A DNA stretch of 18,865 bases from a virus. Where the stretch lies: the IMG/VR virus record IMGVR_UViG_3300045988_134170; one strand, 5' to 3'. A program made the position numbers and the translations under genes. Position 1 is the first letter of the stretch. Every line of letters starts with the position of its first letter. The notes below the pieces were generated by a model, which was not told the DNA's origin, made no database searches, and worked only from the letters and a program-made list of their open reading frames with translations. Of the stretch, positions 1 to 18,865 are shown piece after piece.

Positions 1-6
1 GGAGGG

Positions 7-21
7 GTGTGTGTGTGTGTG
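7..21. repeat. (GT)7 dinucleotide repeat six bases from the genome terminus (mirror copy 18845-18859)
   Basis: Read directly: GGAGGG-GTGTGTGTGTGTGTG-AAG. Confidence 0.95.
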
Positions 22-146
22 AAGATTTTCCCTTGTGGTTTTTTTTATTTGTGTGTTATTTTTTTTTGTTCTGCGTCTCCGTTGGCGCTTTGTTTTGTTT
101 ACTCCTCTATTATATTTTTTTTGCGTCTGACTGTTAAGTTTTTTTA

Positions 147-163
147 TTTTCGGGCGTGTTGTT
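147..163 (+). repeat. 17-bp direct repeat TTTTCGGGCGTGTTGTT, copy 1 (mirror 18703-18719)
   Basis: Identical 17-mer at 147-163 and 287-303. Copy 1 ends 8 bp upstream of the TTGACA at 171. Confidence 0.9.
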
Positions 164-170
164 TTTTTTA

Positions 171-199
171 TTGACACTGTGTCAATGGTTGTATATACA
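171..199 (+). promoter_or_regulatory. ITR promoter P1: TTGACA-17 bp-TATACA
   Basis: TTGACA at 171-176, a 17-bp spacer, then TATACA at 194-199. Two palindromes overlap it: TTGACAC-T-GTGTCAA (171-185) and GTTGTATATACAAC (188-201). Confidence 0.55.
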
Positions 200-286
200 A
201 CAATCCGTGTCCCGCTAAGTTACGGTAACGTAACCGTAGCCTACCGACCGGTAAGTAGGTGTTTTCCAGTGTTTTGCTTCGTTTTG

Positions 287-303
287 TTTTCGGGCGTGTT
301 GTT
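287..303 (+). repeat. 17-bp direct repeat TTTTCGGGCGTGTTGTT, copy 2 (mirror 18563-18579)
   Basis: Identical to 147-163. It lies over the -35 position of the TGTTATAAT promoter at 314-322. Confidence 0.9.
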
Positions 304-313
304 GTTTTGTTTG

Positions 314-322
314 TGTTATAAT
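314..322 (+). promoter_or_regulatory. ITR promoter P2: extended -10 TGTTATAAT
   Basis: TGnTATAAT nonamer at 314-322, about 34 nt upstream of the ATG at 356. RBS-like GGAAAGGAAA at 341-350. Confidence 0.55.
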
Positions 323-355
323 GTAGTTATCCGCTTCAAGGGAAAGGAAAATAAA

Positions 356-736
356 ATGAACATCATTCTTAATCATAAGCATGACGCGGAAGTTCAGTCT
401 CTGCTTGACAAAGCCAACTATCTTGCTCGCACCCGCACCGTCGATATTGACGATGTGTACGACGCTGTTTATATTATCGAACGGAAGTTCGAGGATTGCA
501 CTAGAAAGAGTTTGGAGGGTTTGACTGTTCATGTTGATTTAAACTCTCAAGACTTTCCAAACGCCTATCACGGCATTCCTATGAGTACTCAGTTTGTGCT
601 TGGTTATGAAAAGCGTTCTTGGAGTTTCCTTCGCGCGGAACGTTCGCGTTGTGATAAGTTTAAGAAGTATGACGTGAGGTTGACTGACGCCATGCGTGAA
701 GAGTTGCTGAAGCATTTCGAGTCGTTTAATCGCTGA
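356..736 (+). CDS. Hypothetical early protein (126 aa); start codon lies inside ITR-L
   Basis: ATG at 356 is preceded by GGAAAGGAAA. The track ORF 179-736 is this ORF plus an in-frame read-through of the ITR leader. No family recognised. Confidence 0.7.
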   Translation: MNIILNHKHDAEVQSLLDKANYLARTRTVDIDDVYDAVYIIERKFEDCTRKSLEGLTVHVDLNSQDFPNAYHGIPMSTQFVLGYEKRSWSFLRAERSRCDKFKKYDVRLTDAMREELLKHFESFNR

Positions 737-3066: not shown

Positions 3067-4029
3067 ATGTCTCGAAAGCAGAAGCATGTCAAGGCACGTC
3101 AGGCCGCGCAAGCACGCGCCGCACGTAACATCAAACAGCTTGGCGCTTACTCTCACTCGAATCTCGCCAAAACCGCCGACAAACAACTAGTCAACATCGC
3201 CAAAACGCTCGGAAATGAGTGGGAGCGGCAGAAGAAGCAGGCCATAGCGGAAGCGAAAGCGACACCATATCATGCCACCGCAGTGGAGAAACCGACAAAG
3301 AAAGACTACATGTTCGCTCAACGCACGCCAATCACCAACGCGCAGATTGACGCGGAACCGGTGGCGAAACGACGCAAACTGCTCAGACAGCAGCAGCGGA
3401 AAATCAATGCGGCACGACGGAAAATCAACGAGTGGAACAAGTCTCAGGCCATGCCAGCGAAAAGCGTGTATGAGCAGCGTGTGGCCGAAATCACCGGAAG
3501 CACCGGCGAAAGTTTCGGACGTAACCAGATAATTCCGTCAAAACTCACCGATTTTCTCCAAATGGTGAACGTGTTGTCAGATGAAGCGTTCGTTCGCTCC
3601 CAACTGGAAAGCGGACATCGTAACGAACTGCTTGAGCAGATGCATGACGCCGCCGAAATACTGGGATTGCGCACCGAACGGAAAAGCAAACCGTCTAAAA
3701 AGCGGAAGACGGGCAAACAAGGCAAAGACTTGTATGGTGAGCATGAATGGCCATCATACATGTCACGCGGACGGTACGAAGTGTTTGAAAAAATTTTAGC
3801 CACCACGCTCGGCTCGAAACGGTTGAAACGATTCCGCCAACTATCGGCCGCGCAAAAACGCGCGTTCGTTGAACAGACGGACGCCCCGCGCGTGGTGTTC
3901 GACTGGACTGTGTATGATCCAGCGCGCCACGGCTTCACTTCGATATTCCGTGACAACAGCAAGGGCTATCAACGCTCAAGGCGGCAGTTCGACAGGTGGA
4001 TGACGGAAGCGGGCGTGCTGGAAAAGTAA
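3067..4029 (+). CDS. Putative terminal protein (protein primer), 320 aa
   Basis: Lies immediately upstream of the protein-primed-type polymerase, as in phi29 (gene 3 next to gene 2), and the genome has ITRs. The N-terminal half is very basic and coil-rich. No direct sequence recognition. Confidence 0.5.
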   Translation: MSRKQKHVKARQAAQARAARNIKQLGAYSHSNLAKTADKQLVNIAKTLGNEWERQKKQAIAEAKATPYHATAVEKPTKKDYMFAQRTPITNAQIDAEPVAKRRKLLRQQQRKINAARRKINEWNKSQAMPAKSVYEQRVAEITGSTGESFGRNQIIPSKLTDFLQMVNVLSDEAFVRSQLESGHRNELLEQMHDAAEILGLRTERKSKPSKKRKTGKQGKDLYGEHEWPSYMSRGRYEVFEKILATTLGSKRLKRFRQLSAAQKRAFVEQTDAPRVVFDWTVYDPARHGFTSIFRDNSKGYQRSRRQFDRWMTEAGVLEK

Positions 4030-4056: not shown

Positions 4057-5511
4057 ATGATTACGCAGCAGGATAAAAGAGTGGGATTATGGTGTGCGGA
4101 TAACGTCATACGCTTTACGGACGGCACCGTCCTGCGTAGCATCACCGCACCTAACCGCCTTTTGGCGTCCATCATGTCAGGCGGCAGACTCACCGTCTAC
4201 ATGACCGATCCAGACGTTTTAGATCCGTTCGTGGCACATGTCGTACATTCCCTCCCTCACAACGAGCATAATTCCAACTTGAGCTGGGATGCGATAGTGT
4301 CGAAAAAAGGCAAGTTTTTCGGCTTTAGCGTGCGTATTGATAAAGAGAACTCGGCACGTTTTTTCGACATATCGAATCTTTTACGAGAGAACTGCCGTAT
4401 CACCATGACCGACACGCAACTGCTCAACATCCTGCGAGAATACGACGATCGTGGCTTATGCAAGATAACGGCAGGTGGTGCAAGCATGGAGGCGTTCGCG
4501 TCCGGCGAGTGGAAATGGTTTTACGACAAATTTCCACAGCTTGAGGATGAAACCAAAAAGTCATTGCATGACGCCTATATAGGCGGCTTCATGCTTGTCA
4601 AAGAAGGGGTTTATGGCAAGGCTGTCGACGTTGACTGTAATTCTATGTATCCGGCTATATTACGAGATGAGTGGCTGCCGTGGAGCGAACCGGAACCATA
4701 CGAAGGCCGATACGTGCAGGACAATGACATGCCGTTGCATTGCGACGAACTCACGTTTCGCGCGGAACTCAAACCGGACGGATATCCTTTCCTGCTCGAC
4801 AACCGCAGCGTGTACGGACTCAACCGACTTACCTCGACACGTGGTTACATCACGCGTGTACTTACCGACATTGACCAAGAACTGCTTTACCAGAATTATG
4901 ACGTGAGTATATACCGGCACGTTAGAGGGTGGAAGTTCAGGCGCTCCAAAGGCTTCTTCCGCTCGTTCATAGATGAGTGGGGGGGGTTGAAACAGCGGGC
5001 GACGGGCGAGACACGGCAGATGGCGAAACTCATCATGAACGCTCTTGTCGGCAAAATGGCGAGTCTGCCAAAAGGCGCCGTCATGCTACCAACCTCCAAA
5101 GACGGCATCACGTTGGACTGGAATGTCACGCAACGTGAAGAATCGAATCTAAAAACCGACTATCTTCCCGTGCCTATTTGGATCAACGCCTACGCACGCC
5201 GCAAGCTTATGGACGTGTGCCATGCGAACGCCGACCGGCTGCTATATGCCAATACGGACGGTTGCATACTGAGCGGTTGGGGGCCGGTGAAATCATGTGA
5301 CATCCATCCAACCGAAATCGGCAAATGGAAAATCGCCGCACGATACGAGAAATTGACTATCCTTGGCATGAACCGCTATCAAGGTTGGCGTGATGACGGT
5401 GAAGTGGATGTCTGCATGGCCGGAAACGTGTTTACGGAACCTATTCCGTACGAGCAATTCCGGCATGGCGTGCAAGTCATGGATGATTATGGCACAATGG
5501 TCATGCTATAA
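4057..5511 (+). CDS. Family-B, protein-primed-type DNA polymerase (484 aa)
   Basis: Motif A is VDCNSMYP (phi29 DVNSLYP). Motif B is KLIMNALVGK (phi29 KLMLNSLYGK). Motif C is YANTDG (phi29 YCDTDS). KITAGGASMEAF and DAYIGGF align with phi29 RMTAGSDSLKGF and YAYRGGF. Confidence 0.9.
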   Translation: MITQQDKRVGLWCADNVIRFTDGTVLRSITAPNRLLASIMSGGRLTVYMTDPDVLDPFVAHVVHSLPHNEHNSNLSWDAIVSKKGKFFGFSVRIDKENSARFFDISNLLRENCRITMTDTQLLNILREYDDRGLCKITAGGASMEAFASGEWKWFYDKFPQLEDETKKSLHDAYIGGFMLVKEGVYGKAVDVDCNSMYPAILRDEWLPWSEPEPYEGRYVQDNDMPLHCDELTFRAELKPDGYPFLLDNRSVYGLNRLTSTRGYITRVLTDIDQELLYQNYDVSIYRHVRGWKFRRSKGFFRSFIDEWGGLKQRATGETRQMAKLIMNALVGKMASLPKGAVMLPTSKDGITLDWNVTQREESNLKTDYLPVPIWINAYARRKLMDVCHANADRLLYANTDGCILSGWGPVKSCDIHPTEIGKWKIAARYEKLTILGMNRYQGWRDDGEVDVCMAGNVFTEPIPYEQFRHGVQVMDDYGTMVML

Positions 5512-5512
5512 T
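5504..5512 (+). promoter_or_regulatory. Extended -10 promoter TGCTATAAT overlapping the pol stop codon
   Basis: TG at 5504-5505 and TATAAT at 5507-5512. No ORF follows. Confidence 0.5.
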
Positions 5513-5518
5513 GTTCGT

Positions 5519-5688
5519 GTCTTCCTGAGCATTGATTTTCGGCTGGGAGCAACATAAGTCGGATTGCCACGGCTGAAAACGCCGCCGACTATGGAGTCGC
5601 TACCGTGGCGGTAGTGCCCTACGGATTTTCGACTTGATGCTCATATAGGACGTTCCGACCCTCCGTGATTGGAGGGTCATTTTATTTT
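5519..5688 (+). ncRNA. Candidate structured ncRNA of about 170 nt (pRNA-like?)
   Basis: A promoter at 5504-5512 and an intrinsic terminator at 5657-5688 bracket a region with no ORF longer than 7 codons. The 10-bp helix 5526-5535/5634-5643 closes a 118-nt domain. Inner helix 5563-5572/5603-5612 and hairpin 5586-5599. Confidence 0.45.
5657..5688 (+). terminator. Intrinsic terminator
   Basis: GACCCTCC-GTGATT-GGAGGGTC followed by ATTTTATTTT. Confidence 0.8.
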
Positions 5689-5696
5689 CCGCCGCA

Positions 5697-5705
5697 TGAT
5701 ATAAT
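5697..5705 (+). promoter_or_regulatory. Extended -10 promoter TGATATAAT for the structural operon
   Basis: Lies directly after the terminator and 37 nt upstream of ATG 5742. AAGGAG RBS at 5729-5734. Confidence 0.6.
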
Positions 5706-13067: not shown

Positions 13068-14525
13068 ATGGCTACCGTATATACGAAAACCGATAATTAC
13101 GGATTGAACCTCTACGGCGACAATGATCCAGCCGATCTACGCGACGGTTATAACGGCTCCATGCGCACTATCGATACGACGTTCGAAACGCATCTTAACC
13201 GCATCGAGAACGTAGAGTCGCGTGAAACGTACGATGAAGAAGTGGTCAAAGCACTGCTTGGAGCCAACACAGTGGTCAATGCCACCGCAGCTAAAACCAA
13301 GTGGGACAAAGCCGGTGCCGACGCCACCGCCGCCACCGCCGCCGCCGCCACCGCCGCGGGTAAGGCAGACAATAATAGCGCCATTCTCGCCGCACTCGGC
13401 GCGGACACCGCCACGCATGCCACCGACGCGAAAACTAAATGGAACAAAGCGGGAGTGGACGCAACCACCGCAATCGGCAAAGCCGACTCGAATAAAACCA
13501 TCCTCACCGCGCTAGGAGCCGACACCGCCGCGCATGCCACCGCAAATAAGACAAAATGGGATAAAAACACTACGGATATCACCGCACTATCCACCTCGGT
13601 AGGCAGTAATTCCGCGCAGATCGCCACTATCCTCGAAAAACTGGGACAGGCGCAGTACGAAGACGGATATTTAGTGACGTTTGGCGACTCGTACGCGGAC
13701 TATACACAGAATCGTACATGGTCATACCAGCTTGCGCAAATGTTTCCGCTACTGACTTGGAAAAACTATGCGAAATCTGGCGCAGGTTTCAACGTGTCCG
13801 GCATCCCAACATTCAGACAGCAGGTTGCCAACTGCGTTGACGATACCAGTGTAGACAAAGCCAAAGTCAAAGTCGCCGTGTGCGCGGGCGGACGCAATGA
13901 CATCCTCGATTACGCTACTGGACTTACAAAAGCGCAGGAATGCGTGTCAGCCATGCGATCCGCGTTTCCGAACGCCATTGTCGTAGTTGCACCAATGCTA
14001 TTTGACTCCGCCGTCCTCAATGAAAGAGATATGCAAAAATATTCCGGACTACTGAACGGATGCAAAAACGTCGCATGCGGAGACTCACGCATCGTTTTGG
14101 CCGATGGAGCCTACGTATGGTGCAAAGGTAATACCAATTGGTTTCCGTCCGGAGACATTCATCCGAATGAACTCGGCGCGAAGGCGATTGCGAAATACCT
14201 CTACACGGCGTGCCGTGACAGTTATCGCGGACGGCAGGAGTATGCCGTTTCAATGTTCGGCTCCATGCCGGTGGAATTTCTCTTGCAAAACGCAATGATA
14301 ACCGCCAGTGGACAGGGGCAGATTCCGATAATCGGACAAGGGCATGGCGGTGAGTTGGCAAAATGGTGCCTACCGCGACATAATATTTGGAGCTGGATAG
14401 TCACCGGAGGAAACAGCAGCACACCGCGACTCGGCTTCATTCAGCCAAACGGAACGTGGGGGGTTTTCAATCCTACAGTATCTGACCAAGGCAACTGTTC
14501 GTTCATCGCCGCGTACGCCGCCTAG
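13068..14525 (+). CDS. Tail fibre/appendage protein with SGNH (GDSL) esterase domain, 485 aa
   Basis: N-terminal anchor motif DNYGLNLYGDNDPADLRDGYNGSMRTIDTTF, then about three 40-aa repeats. SGNH blocks follow: I FGDSYADY, II SGAG, III GGRND, V DIHPNELG. Confidence 0.8.
   Translation: MATVYTKTDNYGLNLYGDNDPADLRDGYNGSMRTIDTTFETHLNRIENVESRETYDEEVVKALLGANTVVNATAAKTKWDKAGADATAATAAAATAAGKADNNSAILAALGADTATHATDAKTKWNKAGVDATTAIGKADSNKTILTALGADTAAHATANKTKWDKNTTDITALSTSVGSNSAQIATILEKLGQAQYEDGYLVTFGDSYADYTQNRTWSYQLAQMFPLLTWKNYAKSGAGFNVSGIPTFRQQVANCVDDTSVDKAKVKVAVCAGGRNDILDYATGLTKAQECVSAMRSAFPNAIVVVAPMLFDSAVLNERDMQKYSGLLNGCKNVACGDSRIVLADGAYVWCKGNTNWFPSGDIHPNELGAKAIAKYLYTACRDSYRGRQEYAVSMFGSMPVEFLLQNAMITASGQGQIPIIGQGHGGELAKWCLPRHNIWSWIVTGGNSSTPRLGFIQPNGTWGVFNPTVSDQGNCSFIAAYAA
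13254..13622 (+). repeat. About three tandem in-frame repeats of roughly 40 codons, plus a GCC/ACC triplet tract (13320-13360)
   Basis: Protein repeats have the form LGA(N/D)T...AT.AKTKW(D/N)KAG.DAT...GKAD.N..IL.A. DNA tract GCCACCGCCGCCACCGCCGCCGCCGCCACCGCCGCG. Confidence 0.8.
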
Positions 14526-14542: not shown

Positions 14543-14570
14543 AGCCATACACTATACTTAGTGTATGGCT
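14543..14570 (+). promoter_or_regulatory. Perfect 11-bp hairpin containing the start codon of the tail lysin gene
   Basis: AGCCATACACT-ATACTT-AGTGTATGGCT, followed by ATTACTTTT. ATG 14565 lies in the 3' arm. It may also terminate the fibre gene transcript. Confidence 0.7.
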
Positions 14571-15788
14571 ATTACTTTTGATGATTGGATAAAACAAACT
14601 CAAGGCCGGTTTTGGGACATGGACGGGGCGTACGGCGCGCAATGCTGGGACTTGTGGGCGAAATACTGCATGGACTTATACGGCGCGTCCGTAAGCGACT
14701 GCATCACGCCAACCGGATACGCCGAAGGCAACTACACACGCTTTCCGACGAACGCGAAGATGGCGCAGATTTTCGAGAAGAAACCCGCCGACTATTCTCC
14801 CGTCAAAGGCGACGTGGCGTTTTGGGATTTTTCCAGCCAACACACCGGATCGCACGTGAGCATTGTCATGGAGGACGGCGTGCATGACGGGCATATCACC
14901 GTCCTATCGCAAAACCCTAATCCGACACAGCGCATGACGTTCGACCTAACTGCGTTCTTAGGCTATCTGCACCCCAAAGCGCTAGGAGAGGGGGGTGGCA
15001 CGACCTCGACGGAAAATAACCCAACCGGGGACAATAGTCACGGTTCCGCCGATTCCGCGCGTGGTGGCGCGTGGATACATTGGCAGGGCGACAATTTGTA
15101 TTTACATGAGTCCGATAATACCGGAACGCGAACTCGCATATTCTACAAGACAACGGCCAATAATTTTTTGGAAAAGGCGGCACGACCCCAACCGTCCAGC
15201 AACAACGGACAAGCGCATCCTTCCATGTCTTTGTCGGCGGAAAACTCATATGCTTTGTACGTGATTGGGACCGTCGAAGCGGGATTGCGTTGGGATGCCG
15301 TGGAAGCCGCTAATCTCCAAGGTGTTGGAATTGCTCAATGGAGTTTCGAGCGCCGCTTGCAGGTGCTGAACGCGATGAAAGCCGCCGACCCCACCGGATA
15401 TAGCGCGTTTAAGGCCGCCGCGCCTGAAATCGCGTCTCTTATGGAGTCGGGCGGTACGTTCAAGCGTTCGCTCACTTCGGCGGAAGCGGCCGCGTTCCGC
15501 ACGTGGGCGGGGCGGAGTGAGTCGCGTGATGGTCAGCGCAAGCAGTTCGCGGAGGATTACGCAGGATATCCGGAAGAATATAGCGACACGAAAATGCAGA
15601 TTCTTTGGGTGACGGCGTACCATCAATCGCCCGCGAACGCACTGAAAGTGCCGAAGGCGTCGAATCTCGCACAGCTGAAAAGCAACATTCTCGCCACGTT
15701 TCCGTTCGGCCCGTACACAACACGATACAATCAGGCATACTCGCTTTTGAGCGTGTGGGATGGCAAGTCTAATCCGCCCGCATTCTAA
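14565..15788 (+). CDS. Tail-associated peptidoglycan hydrolase: N-terminal CHAP plus C-terminal lysozyme-like domain (407 aa)
   Basis: CHAP signature DMDGAYGAQCWDLW...GDVAFW...GSHVSIV...SQNPN. Gly/Ser/Thr linker. The C-terminal GTVEAGLRWDAVEA...GVGIAQWSFERRLQVL resembles phage tail lysozyme domains. Same position as phi29 gp13. Confidence 0.75.
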   Translation: MAITFDDWIKQTQGRFWDMDGAYGAQCWDLWAKYCMDLYGASVSDCITPTGYAEGNYTRFPTNAKMAQIFEKKPADYSPVKGDVAFWDFSSQHTGSHVSIVMEDGVHDGHITVLSQNPNPTQRMTFDLTAFLGYLHPKALGEGGGTTSTENNPTGDNSHGSADSARGGAWIHWQGDNLYLHESDNTGTRTRIFYKTTANNFLEKAARPQPSSNNGQAHPSMSLSAENSYALYVIGTVEAGLRWDAVEAANLQGVGIAQWSFERRLQVLNAMKAADPTGYSAFKAAAPEIASLMESGGTFKRSLTSAEAAAFRTWAGRSESRDGQRKQFAEDYAGYPEEYSDTKMQILWVTAYHQSPANALKVPKASNLAQLKSNILATFPFGPYTTRYNQAYSLLSVWDGKSNPPAF

Positions 15789-17550: not shown

Positions 17551-18201
17551 ATGAACATCCAAGAGTGGATTAACTCAGTCAACGGAAAAACCATCGACAT
17601 GGACGGCGCATATGGAGGGCAATGTTGGGACTTATGGAGTTCCTACGCGCGCCACGTGTACGGTATTCCAGCCGCCGACACGAACACGGTAGACGGCTAC
17701 GCCGCAAGCGTGTACACTGCACGATATGACCGCTCCCGCGCGTTGCAAAACGCTTTCACAAAAGAGTCAGCCAACTACACGCCGACATACGGTGACGTGG
17801 CGTTCTGGAAACGCAGCGGCATGAACCACGTCGCCATCGTAGTGCGAGACAATGGCAACGGCACTCTACGAACTATCAGTCAAAACCCCAACCGCGCCGG
17901 ATACGTCAATATCAGCAAAAACGGCATCATTGGATATTTCCATCCACGAAACAGCAGCAACAACAACACCGACATTGCCGCACGCGCCTATCGAGTCAAC
18001 GTTGACGTACTCAACGTACGCTCGGCACCTAGCGTTCACAGTCAGGTAGTGGCACAATATCATAAAGGACAGACGGTAAACCTCTTGAGCGGCACCACAA
18101 TCGCAGACGGCTACGTTTGGGCACACTATGTCGGCGGTTCAGGCAAAACACGATATGTAGCGCTAAAGGCCGTGAACGGTACGACACAATACCTCGTATA
18201 A
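17551..18201 (+). CDS. Endolysin: CHAP domain plus C-terminal SH3b cell-wall-binding domain (216 aa)
   Basis: AAGGAG RBS. CHAP signature DMDGAYGGQCWDLW...GDVAFW...NHVAIVV. SH3b-like RAYRVNVDVLNVRSAPSVHSQVVAQYHKGQTVNL...DGYVWAHY. Confidence 0.85.
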   Translation: MNIQEWINSVNGKTIDMDGAYGGQCWDLWSSYARHVYGIPAADTNTVDGYAASVYTARYDRSRALQNAFTKESANYTPTYGDVAFWKRSGMNHVAIVVRDNGNGTLRTISQNPNRAGYVNISKNGIIGYFHPRNSSNNNTDIAARAYRVNVDVLNVRSAPSVHSQVVAQYHKGQTVNLLSGTTIADGYVWAHYVGGSGKTRYVALKAVNGTTQYLV

Positions 18202-18209
18202 CAATAAGT

Positions 18210-18240
18210 AAAGCCCCTAGGCTGTCGGCCTAGGGGCTTT
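18210..18240. terminator. Bidirectional intrinsic terminator between convergent genes
   Basis: 13-bp stem AAAGCCCCTAGGC-TGTCG-GCCTAGGGGCTTT. The A-run on one side and T-run on the other give a U-tract on both strands. Confidence 0.85.
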
Positions 18241-18252
18241 TACTTTTATATG

Positions 18253-18510
18253 TCAGTCGCCGTTGTCAATCGAAACAGTATATTCGCGGCACGGGCGCCC
18301 TTCCTTGGAACGGCTTTTAGCGACCATGTTGATATCGTAGTTATCACCCAAGAAAACCTCTACGATACCCGCAAGCGCCCGACGAAACGAAAGAACAGAA
18401 TCTTCTTCCAGTCCATCGATGGAAGTGAAGCCATTCCAAACTCCCTCGATAATCACTTTGTATCGATTGTCCTTCTCGAACTCGATAACATGTGCAGTAA
18501 GATTAATCAT
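18253..18510 (-). CDS. Hypothetical protein (85 aa), possibly HicB/UPF0150-like fold; start codon lies inside ITR-R
   Basis: The ATG is the complement of 18508-18510, i.e. the mirror of ATG 356, and uses the same ITR RBS. The pattern YKVIIEGVWNGFTSIDGLEEDSVLSFRRALAGIVEVFL resembles HicB-type N-domains from memory. Confidence 0.65.
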   Translation of the reverse strand: MINLTAHVIEFEKDNRYKVIIEGVWNGFTSIDGLEEDSVLSFRRALAGIVEVFLGDNYDINMVAKSRSKEGRPCREYTVSIDNGD

Positions 18511-18543
18511 TTTATTTTCCTTTCCCTTGAAGCGGATAACTAC

Positions 18544-18552
18544 ATTATAACA
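18544..18552 (-). promoter_or_regulatory. ITR promoter P2 (mirror copy), extended -10
   Basis: Reverse complement of 314-322. Confidence 0.55.
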
Positions 18553-18666
18553 CAAACAAAACAACAACACGCCCGAAAACAAAACGAAGCAAAACACTGG
18601 AAAACACCTACTTACCGGTCGGTAGGCTACGGTTACGTTACCGTAACTTAGCGGGACACGGATTGT

Positions 18667-18695
18667 TGTATATACAACCATTGACACAGTGTCAA
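18667..18695 (-). promoter_or_regulatory. ITR promoter P1 (mirror copy), TTGACA-17-TATACA
   Basis: Reverse complement of 171-199. Confidence 0.55.
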
Positions 18696-18865
18696 TAAAA
18701 AAAACAACACGCCCGAAAATAAAAAAACTTAACAGTCAGACGCAAAAAAAATATAATAGAGGAGTAAACAAAACAAAGCGCCAACGGAGACGCAGAACAA
18801 AAAAAAATAACACACAAATAAAAAAAACCACAAGGGAAAATCTTCACACACACACACACCCCTCC

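Follow-up and report, generated by a model that had tools for sequence, protein, structure and literature searches.

Why should the terminal repeat of a linear phage genome stop at a start codon? The question is raised by IMG/VR virus record IMGVR_UViG_3300045988_134170, an 18,865-nucleotide (nt) stretch of DNA that was analyzed at its full length and is referred to here as the window. Its gene content marks the window as the nearly complete linear genome of a protein-primed, phi29-like podophage of Bifidobacterium that is kin to phages BP1 and BD811P2. Its ends form an inverted terminal repeat (ITR) that extends through a predicted promoter, a leader, and a ribosome-binding site (RBS) to an ATG from which two unrelated proteins start. 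A sequence-only reading of the window attributed this boundary to selection for symmetric, very-early expression inward from both ends and to homogenization of the ends. We consider it likely that the ITR is a composite that includes an inward expression unit and that its boundary is the edge of shared non-coding DNA, the ends being homogenized and a variable slot for first genes lying just inside. Anatomy, conservation, coding status, and the distribution of gene cassettes are read from the sequence, and we infer promoter activity, expression timing, origin function, and the homogenizing mechanism.

Geometry of the Repeat and True Genome Ends

The features on which the question turns are the two arms of the repeat and the two genes that follow them (lengths in amino acids, aa).

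1-359, plus strand: left ITR, 100% complementary to 18507-18865, with homologs at the ends of BP1 and over 20 metagenomic genomes
18507-18865, minus strand: right ITR, exact mirror of 1-359
356-736, plus strand: left terminal gene (family G, 126 aa), first gene of the early operon
18253-18510, minus strand: right terminal gene (family A, 85 aa, acidic), a single gene before a terminator

The sequence shared by the arms finishes ...GGGAAAGGAAAATAAAATGA, the final common bases being ATGA, and the first divergent base is 360, which is A at the left end (ATGAAC) and T at the right end (ATGATT). The ATG itself occupies 356-358, with its mirror at 18508-18510, and thus begins at nucleotide 356 from each end. 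The sequence-only reading was accurate in these respects: the arms are 359 nt long and perfectly complementary, they end one base past the mirrored ATG, and the motifs that it placed at 171-199, 314-322, 341-350, 219-240, and 240-259 are all present. A perfect inverted repeat of this length cannot arise by chance in 18.9 kb.

An assembler could in principle generate such a repeat as a fold-back or chimeric join, and the relatives assembled with MEGAHIT, whose terminal repeats are exactly k bases long (141 or 111), as well as the adapter sequence in the BP1 record, speak for this possibility. However, more than 25 independent assemblies, including those of the cultured phages BP1, which infects B. 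pseudocatenulatum U19, and BD811P2, which infects B. dentium DA811, have the same ends around different unique genes, and the adapter in BP1 identifies a physical end at the equivalent site. There, the GenBank record has an Illumina adapter fused directly to GTGGGAGGTGCATGG...GATTTTCCCTTGTGG, the homolog of window positions 1-40, and several independent contigs begin within a few bases of one another's start. Because the adapter abuts the homologous end and independent contigs begin alike, we regard the ITR as a real end structure and give virtually no weight to an assembly artifact. The window and its relatives begin with GGAGGGG, GGGAGGGG, GTGGGAGG, or CAGGAGTGGGAGG; given the last three, which are starts of relatives, the window is probably short of 1-8 terminal bases. 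As a separate observation, the true left end in the BP1 record (L001, PQ571273.1) is preceded, at positions 1-291, by a partial duplicate of gp1, by unrelated sequence, and by an Illumina adapter (acactctttccctacacgacgctcttccgatct), and the right end of the record is missing ~88 nt of the ITR.

Two Unrelated Genes Start at the Mirrored ATG

Even at an E-value of 10, no similarity is detected between the left and right terminal proteins. Homologs of the left protein (family G) form 122 clusters, nearly all of 126-127 aa, and those of the right protein (family A) form 35 clusters of 85-86 aa; both sets are confined to contigs no larger than a phage genome (~19.7 kb at most). The dN/dS ratio is 0.17 for the left gene and 0.20-0.25 for the right gene, with pairwise values of 0.11-0.30 overall. 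By these measures, both terminal open reading frames (ORFs) are real genes under purifying selection. In one relative, GTG replaces ATG at the same start position.

Upstream, the left frame remains open as far as a GTG at 179; the JGI gene call (155 aa) starts at the GTG at 269. We rejected both upstream starts, given homologs of 126-127 aa and indels of 1-3 nt that relatives have between the Shine-Dalgarno (SD) sequence and the ATG; these indels fall in runs of A and G and imply that there is no conserved N-terminal extension. The left terminal protein has no match in Pfam, PHROGs, or the PDB. Structure models of the two proteins made with AlphaFold (pLDDT of 66 for the left protein and 87 for the right) have no PDB match with an E-value below 0.09, and a BFVD search with them returned uncharacterized homologs only.

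The Predicted Inward Expression Unit

The inner part of each arm, together with the terminator inside the right end, contains the following features.

153-161, plus strand, mirror 18705-18713: first copy of a GGCGTGTTG box, which also occurs in the ITRs of Badaztecvirus
162-281, strand not applicable, mirror 18585-18704: optional 120-nt insertion that contains the upstream promoter (P1) and the hairpins of the sequence-only reading
293-301, plus strand, mirror 18565-18573: second copy of the GGCGTGTTG box, directly upstream of P2
314-322, plus strand, mirror 18544-18552 on the minus strand: P2, an extended -10 promoter (TGTTATAAT) that faces inward
329-355, plus strand, mirror 18511-18537: predicted 5' leader of ~27 nt, conserved as GTAGTTATCnnCTTCAAGG
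18210-18240, both directions: bidirectional terminator of the right terminal gene and the convergent endolysin gene, with a 14-bp stem and T-runs on both strands

We propose that the inward unit would consist of a GGCGTGTYG box, the extended -10 of P2, the leader of ~27 nt, a GAAAGGA SD, and the ATG. At the left end, this unit would start the early operon by way of the 126-aa gene; at the right end, it would drive the lone 85-aa gene up to the bidirectional terminator. A conserved AAAGCCCCTAGG...CCTAGGGGCTTT follows the right-end cassettes of relatives. P2 is found in every relative, as TGTTATAGT, TGTTATAAT, TGTTATGAT, or TGTTATTAT, and the general pattern TGNTATRRT occurs seven times in the window (1.4 expected), a number that none of 200 shuffled sequences reaches. 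Motifs of the same class are also located ahead of other genes, at 808, 2988, 5504, and 5697. The RBS stretch GGAAAGGAAA at 341-350 includes the SD GAAAGGA (342-348), which lies 7 nt ahead of the ATG and which we take to match the 3' tail of Bifidobacterium 16S rRNA; SDs of the GAAAGG type likewise precede the genes for the single-stranded DNA-binding protein (SSB) and the capsid protein.

The boxes, of which the window has five copies against 0.63 expected, can also be read differently: the inner ITR might be a set of binding sites for replication or packaging proteins (e.g., p6-like), its likeness to a promoter being incidental and the terminal genes being transcribed weakly or from elsewhere. 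Together with the palindromes, the GGCGTGTYG boxes do resemble protein-binding sites, and P2 is not accompanied by a -35 hexamer. However, the extended -10 stands at a fixed distance from the SD and ATG, the same motif precedes other genes, and, apart from P1 in the optional insertion, there is no other promoter candidate between the genome end and either ATG and nothing else upstream of the right-end gene. We therefore judge this possibility very unlikely.

The sequence-only reading assigned identical signals to both terminal genes, a description that stands for P2, the SD, and the ATG, which are conserved and shared. It does not extend to P1 (TTGACA at 171-176, a 17-nt spacer, and TATACA at 194-199) or to the hairpins at 219-240 and 240-259, which had been taken for a common leader. 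Both are part of the 120-nt insertion, which is missing from about half of the family (including BP1, c018182, c008917, c022980, c032762, and c017334) and is found at one end only in genome L069. The two hexamers of P1 are each one half of a separate palindrome. Its -10 decays to TATGCA/TGTGCA in c102984, and a promoter scan of the window does not list P1 because this -10 has no final T. The predicted start of P2 is downstream of the hairpins, which would thus not be part of the P2 leader, and the folding of 160-358 is no better than that of shuffled sequence (z = -0.57).

The insertion contains the palindromes TTGACACTGTGTCAA (171-185), GTTGTATATACAAC (188-201), and TTACGGTAACGTAACCGTA (220-238) and the stem at 240-259, and it has grown to a palindrome of ~100 nt in c043005 and c102984. 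Expanded insertions (L043-type, c043005/c102984; L013, L035, L024) form a near-perfect palindrome whose center is GTTACGGTTACGTAACCGTAAC and in which TTGACACTGTGTCAA occurs up to three times. In L066 and L067, which belong to a more divergent lineage, the first ~170 nt of each end contain a long tandem array of (GGGTTGGTT)n within the ITR, with the same promoter-SD-ATG unit downstream.

The Boundary Across Relatives

A leader pattern, TGTAGTTATCNNCTTCAAGG, matched both ends of many 17-20 kb contigs from IMG/VR and metagenomes, and nine further whole genomes were found through homologs of a tail protein, which number more than 450 clusters. The boundary was scored in the 25 assemblies with both ends available; the records of BD811P1, BD811P3, and Curtobacterium phage Reje, which have no ITRs, and that of BadAztec4, which is rearranged, are not informative for ends.

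22 of 25 assemblies: ends alike to the first ATG (±4 nt)
1 of 25 (c032762): repeat continues through a shared gene to a second ATG
1 of 25 (c028413): repeat continues to the stop codon of a shared gene
1 of 25 (L069): repeat halts upstream of the promoter

The 22 assemblies comprise the window, BP1, BD811P2, ODSV01000639 (with an ITR of 367 nt), ten IMG/VR contigs, and all but one of the nine new genomes. Small indels occur in the spacer between the SD and the ATG in about half of these assemblies. In Badaztecvirus, both of two genomes keep their ends alike up to the start codon. The expectation that the ITRs of relatives also end at start codons is thus borne out in two genera.

The exceptions are informative about what sets the boundary. 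In c032762, the repeat spans a shared gene of 66 aa (family E) with its terminator as well as a second promoter module, directly after whose ATG the ends diverge; in c028413, the repeat finishes exactly on the stop codon of the shared gene. A boundary fixed at the start codon is not compatible with these genomes. Comparison of the ends indicates that the boundary lies where the first genes begin to differ and that no mechanism fixes it at the start codon.

These data bear directly on the adaptive explanation, according to which selection for symmetric very-early expression from P1 and P2 holds the boundary at the ATG and the hairpins are a common regulatory leader. The boundary does recur at an ATG in two genera, Streptococcus phage Cp-1 has two mapped inward promoters per end, and P1 has a perfect TTGACA and a 17-nt spacer. 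However, the boundary shifts to a stop codon in c028413 and to a second ATG in c032762, P1 and the hairpins belong to an insertion that about half of the family lacks and that is one-ended in L069, the P1 hexamers are palindrome halves with a variable -10, and the fold of the region is not significant. In our assessment, this explanation is unlikely.

First-Gene Cassettes and Proposed End-to-End Exchange

The 38 terminal ORFs fall into 10 families, 7 of which are acidic, and further families are present in genomes added later; searches of the ten families against Pfam and PHROGs returned nothing significant. Families A, B, C, E, and G are located beside the early genes in some genomes and beside the endolysin gene in others. 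Cassettes may also be stacked, as in L055 (ITR-P2-G-terminator-P2'-B-terminator), or leave traces, as in c008917, where gene E is followed by a 3' remnant of gene G. IMG/VR contig 011708 happens to be as long as the window (18,865 nt), a match that we regard as chance, and its terminal genes differ from those of the window. In c032762 and c028413, the same gene is duplicated at both ends within a longer ITR; this is not the case in the window, whose terminal genes differ from each other.

The ITR copies are 100% identical within the window and have a mean identity of 86-88% between genomes, and the 120-nt insertion is present at both ends or at neither in 12 of 13 informative assemblies. Identical copies and paired insertions fit concerted evolution by end-to-end exchange. 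The DNA upstream of the ATG would then be common non-coding sequence kept alike by such exchange, through panhandle or template-switch repair or through recombination, and the DNA downstream would be a variable slot occupied by accessory ORFs that are unrelated to one another and move from end to end. The start codon would not need to be recognized. Template switching or recombination within the repeat would carry the first ORF across, already equipped with promoter, SD, and ATG, and this transfer would explain the hopping of cassettes, the duplicated gene in c032762 and c028413, and the boundaries at ORF edges. A panhandle model in which ITR homology is restored has been proposed for adenovirus and PRD1 (PMC11886824).

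The same likeness up to the ATG could come about without any maintenance of the ITR if the inward unit had been placed independently before many early genes. Internal modules of the P2' type with their own RBS and ATG do occur after terminators in BP1, c011708, c032762, and L055, and the two ends of L069 have two different types of module. However, the internal modules are just 74-88% like the ITR copy, whereas the terminal copies match each other completely or almost completely and run on into the remainder of the ITR, and indels such as the 120-nt insertion are usually common to both ends. Reuse of a module is quite unlikely to be the explanation.

Several observations weigh against a composite ITR with homogenized ends and an inward unit. 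The homogenization proposed in the sequence-only reading is plausible in view of the identical copies but imperfect, since the copies differ inside the repeat in L065, L066/67, and L071. The identity of 100% may itself be inflated, given that differences far inside a repeat cannot be phased with short reads; of such a repeat, MEGAHIT contigs retain only k bases. L069, where the repeat stops before two different promoter modules, implies that a shared cassette is not obligatory. P2 has no recognizable -35, and the terminal-protein gene, which phi29-like phages have next to the polymerase gene, is a candidate assigned from its position: the 320-aa ORF at the syntenic place (3067-4029) is matched by neither Pfam nor PHROGs and is not similar to the terminal protein of Actinomyces phage Av-1.

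The composite reading suggests a further idea, which we put forward tentatively and hold to be possible though doubtful: the promoter, RBS, and ATG of the ITR might act as a universal landing pad, such that replication-coupled exchange of ends copies the following ORF, signals included, to the other end. If so, these phages would have a built-in means of shuffling, duplicating, and stacking very-early accessory genes, perhaps with anti-defense functions, that is conserved in at least two genera of Bifidobacterium phages.

Comparison with Known Systems

The closest precedent is Cp-1 (Cepunavirus), a protein-primed podophage whose features were taken from its GenBank annotation. It has a perfect ITR of 236 bp with ends that remain ~90% alike to ~352 nt, and two inward promoters per end (PE1/PE2 and PE4/PE5; TTGACA-17-TGCTATAAT) with mapped starts 351 nt from each end, which provide an experimental precedent for symmetric inward early transcription. 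Its first coding sequences (CDSs) differ and begin 376 and 375 nt from the ends, and its ITR also has an annotated outward -35/-10, the counterpart of an outward promoter at 109-137 of the window. In Cp-1, however, the two RBSs are different and the likeness stops ~20 nt short of the ATG, whereas in the window identity continues through leader, SD, and ATG. The sequence-only reading had set the window against phi29 and other protein-primed phages; this comparison understates Cp-1, whose near-repeat ends already carry early promoters. No description of cassette movement between the ends of Cp-1 was found.

Av-1 (Dybvigvirus) resembles the window in gene order, in an ITR of ~210 nt (94% identity), and in inward early promoters at both ends, but its repeat reaches only as far as the -35 hexamer, beyond which each end has its own -10, leader, RBS, and ATG. 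The window ITR has no homology to Cp-1 or Av-1, with matches of 8-13 nt only (E > 0.07), and the alignments thus indicate that the resemblance to their ends is architectural.

Two Badaztecvirus phages of B. asteroides share the boundary. BadAztec1 has an ITR of 259 nt that also ends in ATGA, with the first CDSs at 256 from both ends, and BadAargau2 has an ITR of 227 nt that stops 1-3 nt before the ATG. In both, the ITR includes a GGCGTGTCG box, a TGTTATAT-type -10, and a GAAAGGA SD, and two different genes follow. Their DNA polymerase is ~31% identical to that of the window, and their ITRs have no homology to that of the window beyond short motifs. In BadAztec1 (L060), nucleotides 1-27 of the ITR recur in inverted orientation at 141-167, such that each end could fold back on itself.

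Phi29 is similar to the window in having early promoters near a terminal-protein-capped end (C2 facing inward at the right; A1/A2 toward the left end) and differs in its 6-bp ITR, promoters outside the repeat, and unrelated ends. Poxviruses and linear replicons of Streptomyces undergo terminal transposition and ITR expansion, with boundaries that vary between strains, gene copying between ends, and ITR copies that evolve in concert. Their repeats are kilobases long, and those of adenovirus and PRD1 do not have a complete expression cassette ending at a start codon. The searchable papers that name BD811P, BP1, or BadAztec phages do not describe the genome ends. What is already known is that inward early promoters within terminal repeats serve different genes; what is new is that the repeat extends through leader, SD, and start codon, that two genera have this extension conserved, and that first-gene cassettes move between the ends.

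Other Elements of the Terminal Repeat

The outer part of each arm contains three further elements.

24-74, strand not applicable, mirror 18792-18842: terminal block (GATTTTCCCTTGTGG...GTTCTG), nearly every column of which is identical across nine genomes
73-88, strand not applicable, mirror 18778-18793: short stem-loop (GCGTC...GGCGC) flagged as terminator-like, of variable sequence with stem potential kept
109-137, minus strand, mirror 18729-18757 on the plus strand: sigma-70 consensus promoter TTAACA-17-TATAAT facing the genome end, an 11/12 match

From its position, we suggest that the terminal block is the origin of protein-primed replication. The outward promoter was overlooked in the sequence-only reading. 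Among nine distinct ITRs of the family, its -35 is TTGACA in seven, its -10 is TATAAT in seven, and its spacer is always 17 nt long, with nine bases that vary freely. Conserved hexamers and spacing with free spacer bases are, at the level of sequence, the pattern expected of a working promoter. The ~100-nt run-off RNA that it would produce was considered as a packaging RNA (pRNA) and rejected as unstructured (-5.9 kcal/mol). In phi29, transcription runs off the left genome end (PMC11476376), a parallel to the outward promoter of the window.

A third, inverted GGCGTGTCG box lies at 2447-2455 on the minus strand, ~90 nt upstream of the SSB gene. It is found at the same place in BP1 (16351) and BD811P2 (1662), and the same 9-mer occurs in Badaztecvirus ITRs. 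The box near the SSB gene may be a binding site for a regulator.

Gene Content of the Window

Over 56% of its length, the window shares 79% nucleotide identity with BP1; its identity to BD811P2 is 76%. Its products include a protein-primed family B DNA polymerase (PF03175, DNA_pol_B_2, E = 1e-26, 94 bits against a cut-off of 25.8; phrog_1907), a phi29-type packaging ATPase (PF05894, E = 2e-45), phi29-type SSB, capsid, tail, and connector proteins, a holin, and two CHAP endolysin-like proteins. The phi29-type set of packaging ATPase, connector, capsid, and tail genes is also matched by phrog_2038, 2006, and 2248 in the window and by PF05352, PF25622, PF20934, and PF17427 in relatives. All genes run from left to right with the sole exception of the last. 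A search for tRNAs in the window found none.

The two CHAP endolysin-like genes (14565-15788 and 17551-18201) have N-terminal stretches that are 83% identical (14616-14657 and 17596-17637). A 485-aa ORF (13068-14525) that contains three diverged direct repeats of 117-138 nt at 13279-13602 is probably a tail or receptor-binding protein; its position appears to be a swappable module, because relatives have GDPD or GDSL-lipase domains there.

A Candidate Structured RNA

The non-coding gap between the polymerase gene and the head genes (5504-5705) has an extended -10 of its own (TGCTATAAT, 5504-5512) and ~140 nt that are structured, as well as a strong terminator at 5657-5688 and another promoter at 5697-5705. 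For the structured RNA candidate at 5513-5690, 97% of cells pair across 16 genomes, the fold has a z-score of -3.3, and compensatory changes are observed in 12 of 48 pairs, compared with 1-2 in slid controls. The candidate has no match in Rfam, and an Rfam scan of the whole window (E ≤ 10) gave chance matches only and no pRNA. We regard the element as a candidate packaging RNA or another phage small RNA.

Implications for the Phage Family

Comparison with relatives turns a single odd boundary into a family-wide rule of podophages from gut and bee-gut Bifidobacterium. The family also documents how assemblers truncate ends of this kind, and two public records need correction. For phage engineering, the boundary suggests an insertion site with ready-made expression signals. 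The rule marks a variable slot of first genes that are predicted to be strongly expressed, and such a slot is a likely site of host-takeover or anti-defense functions. These phages are a small, tractable natural system for studying the upkeep of protein-primed linear genome ends and the movement of genes between them.

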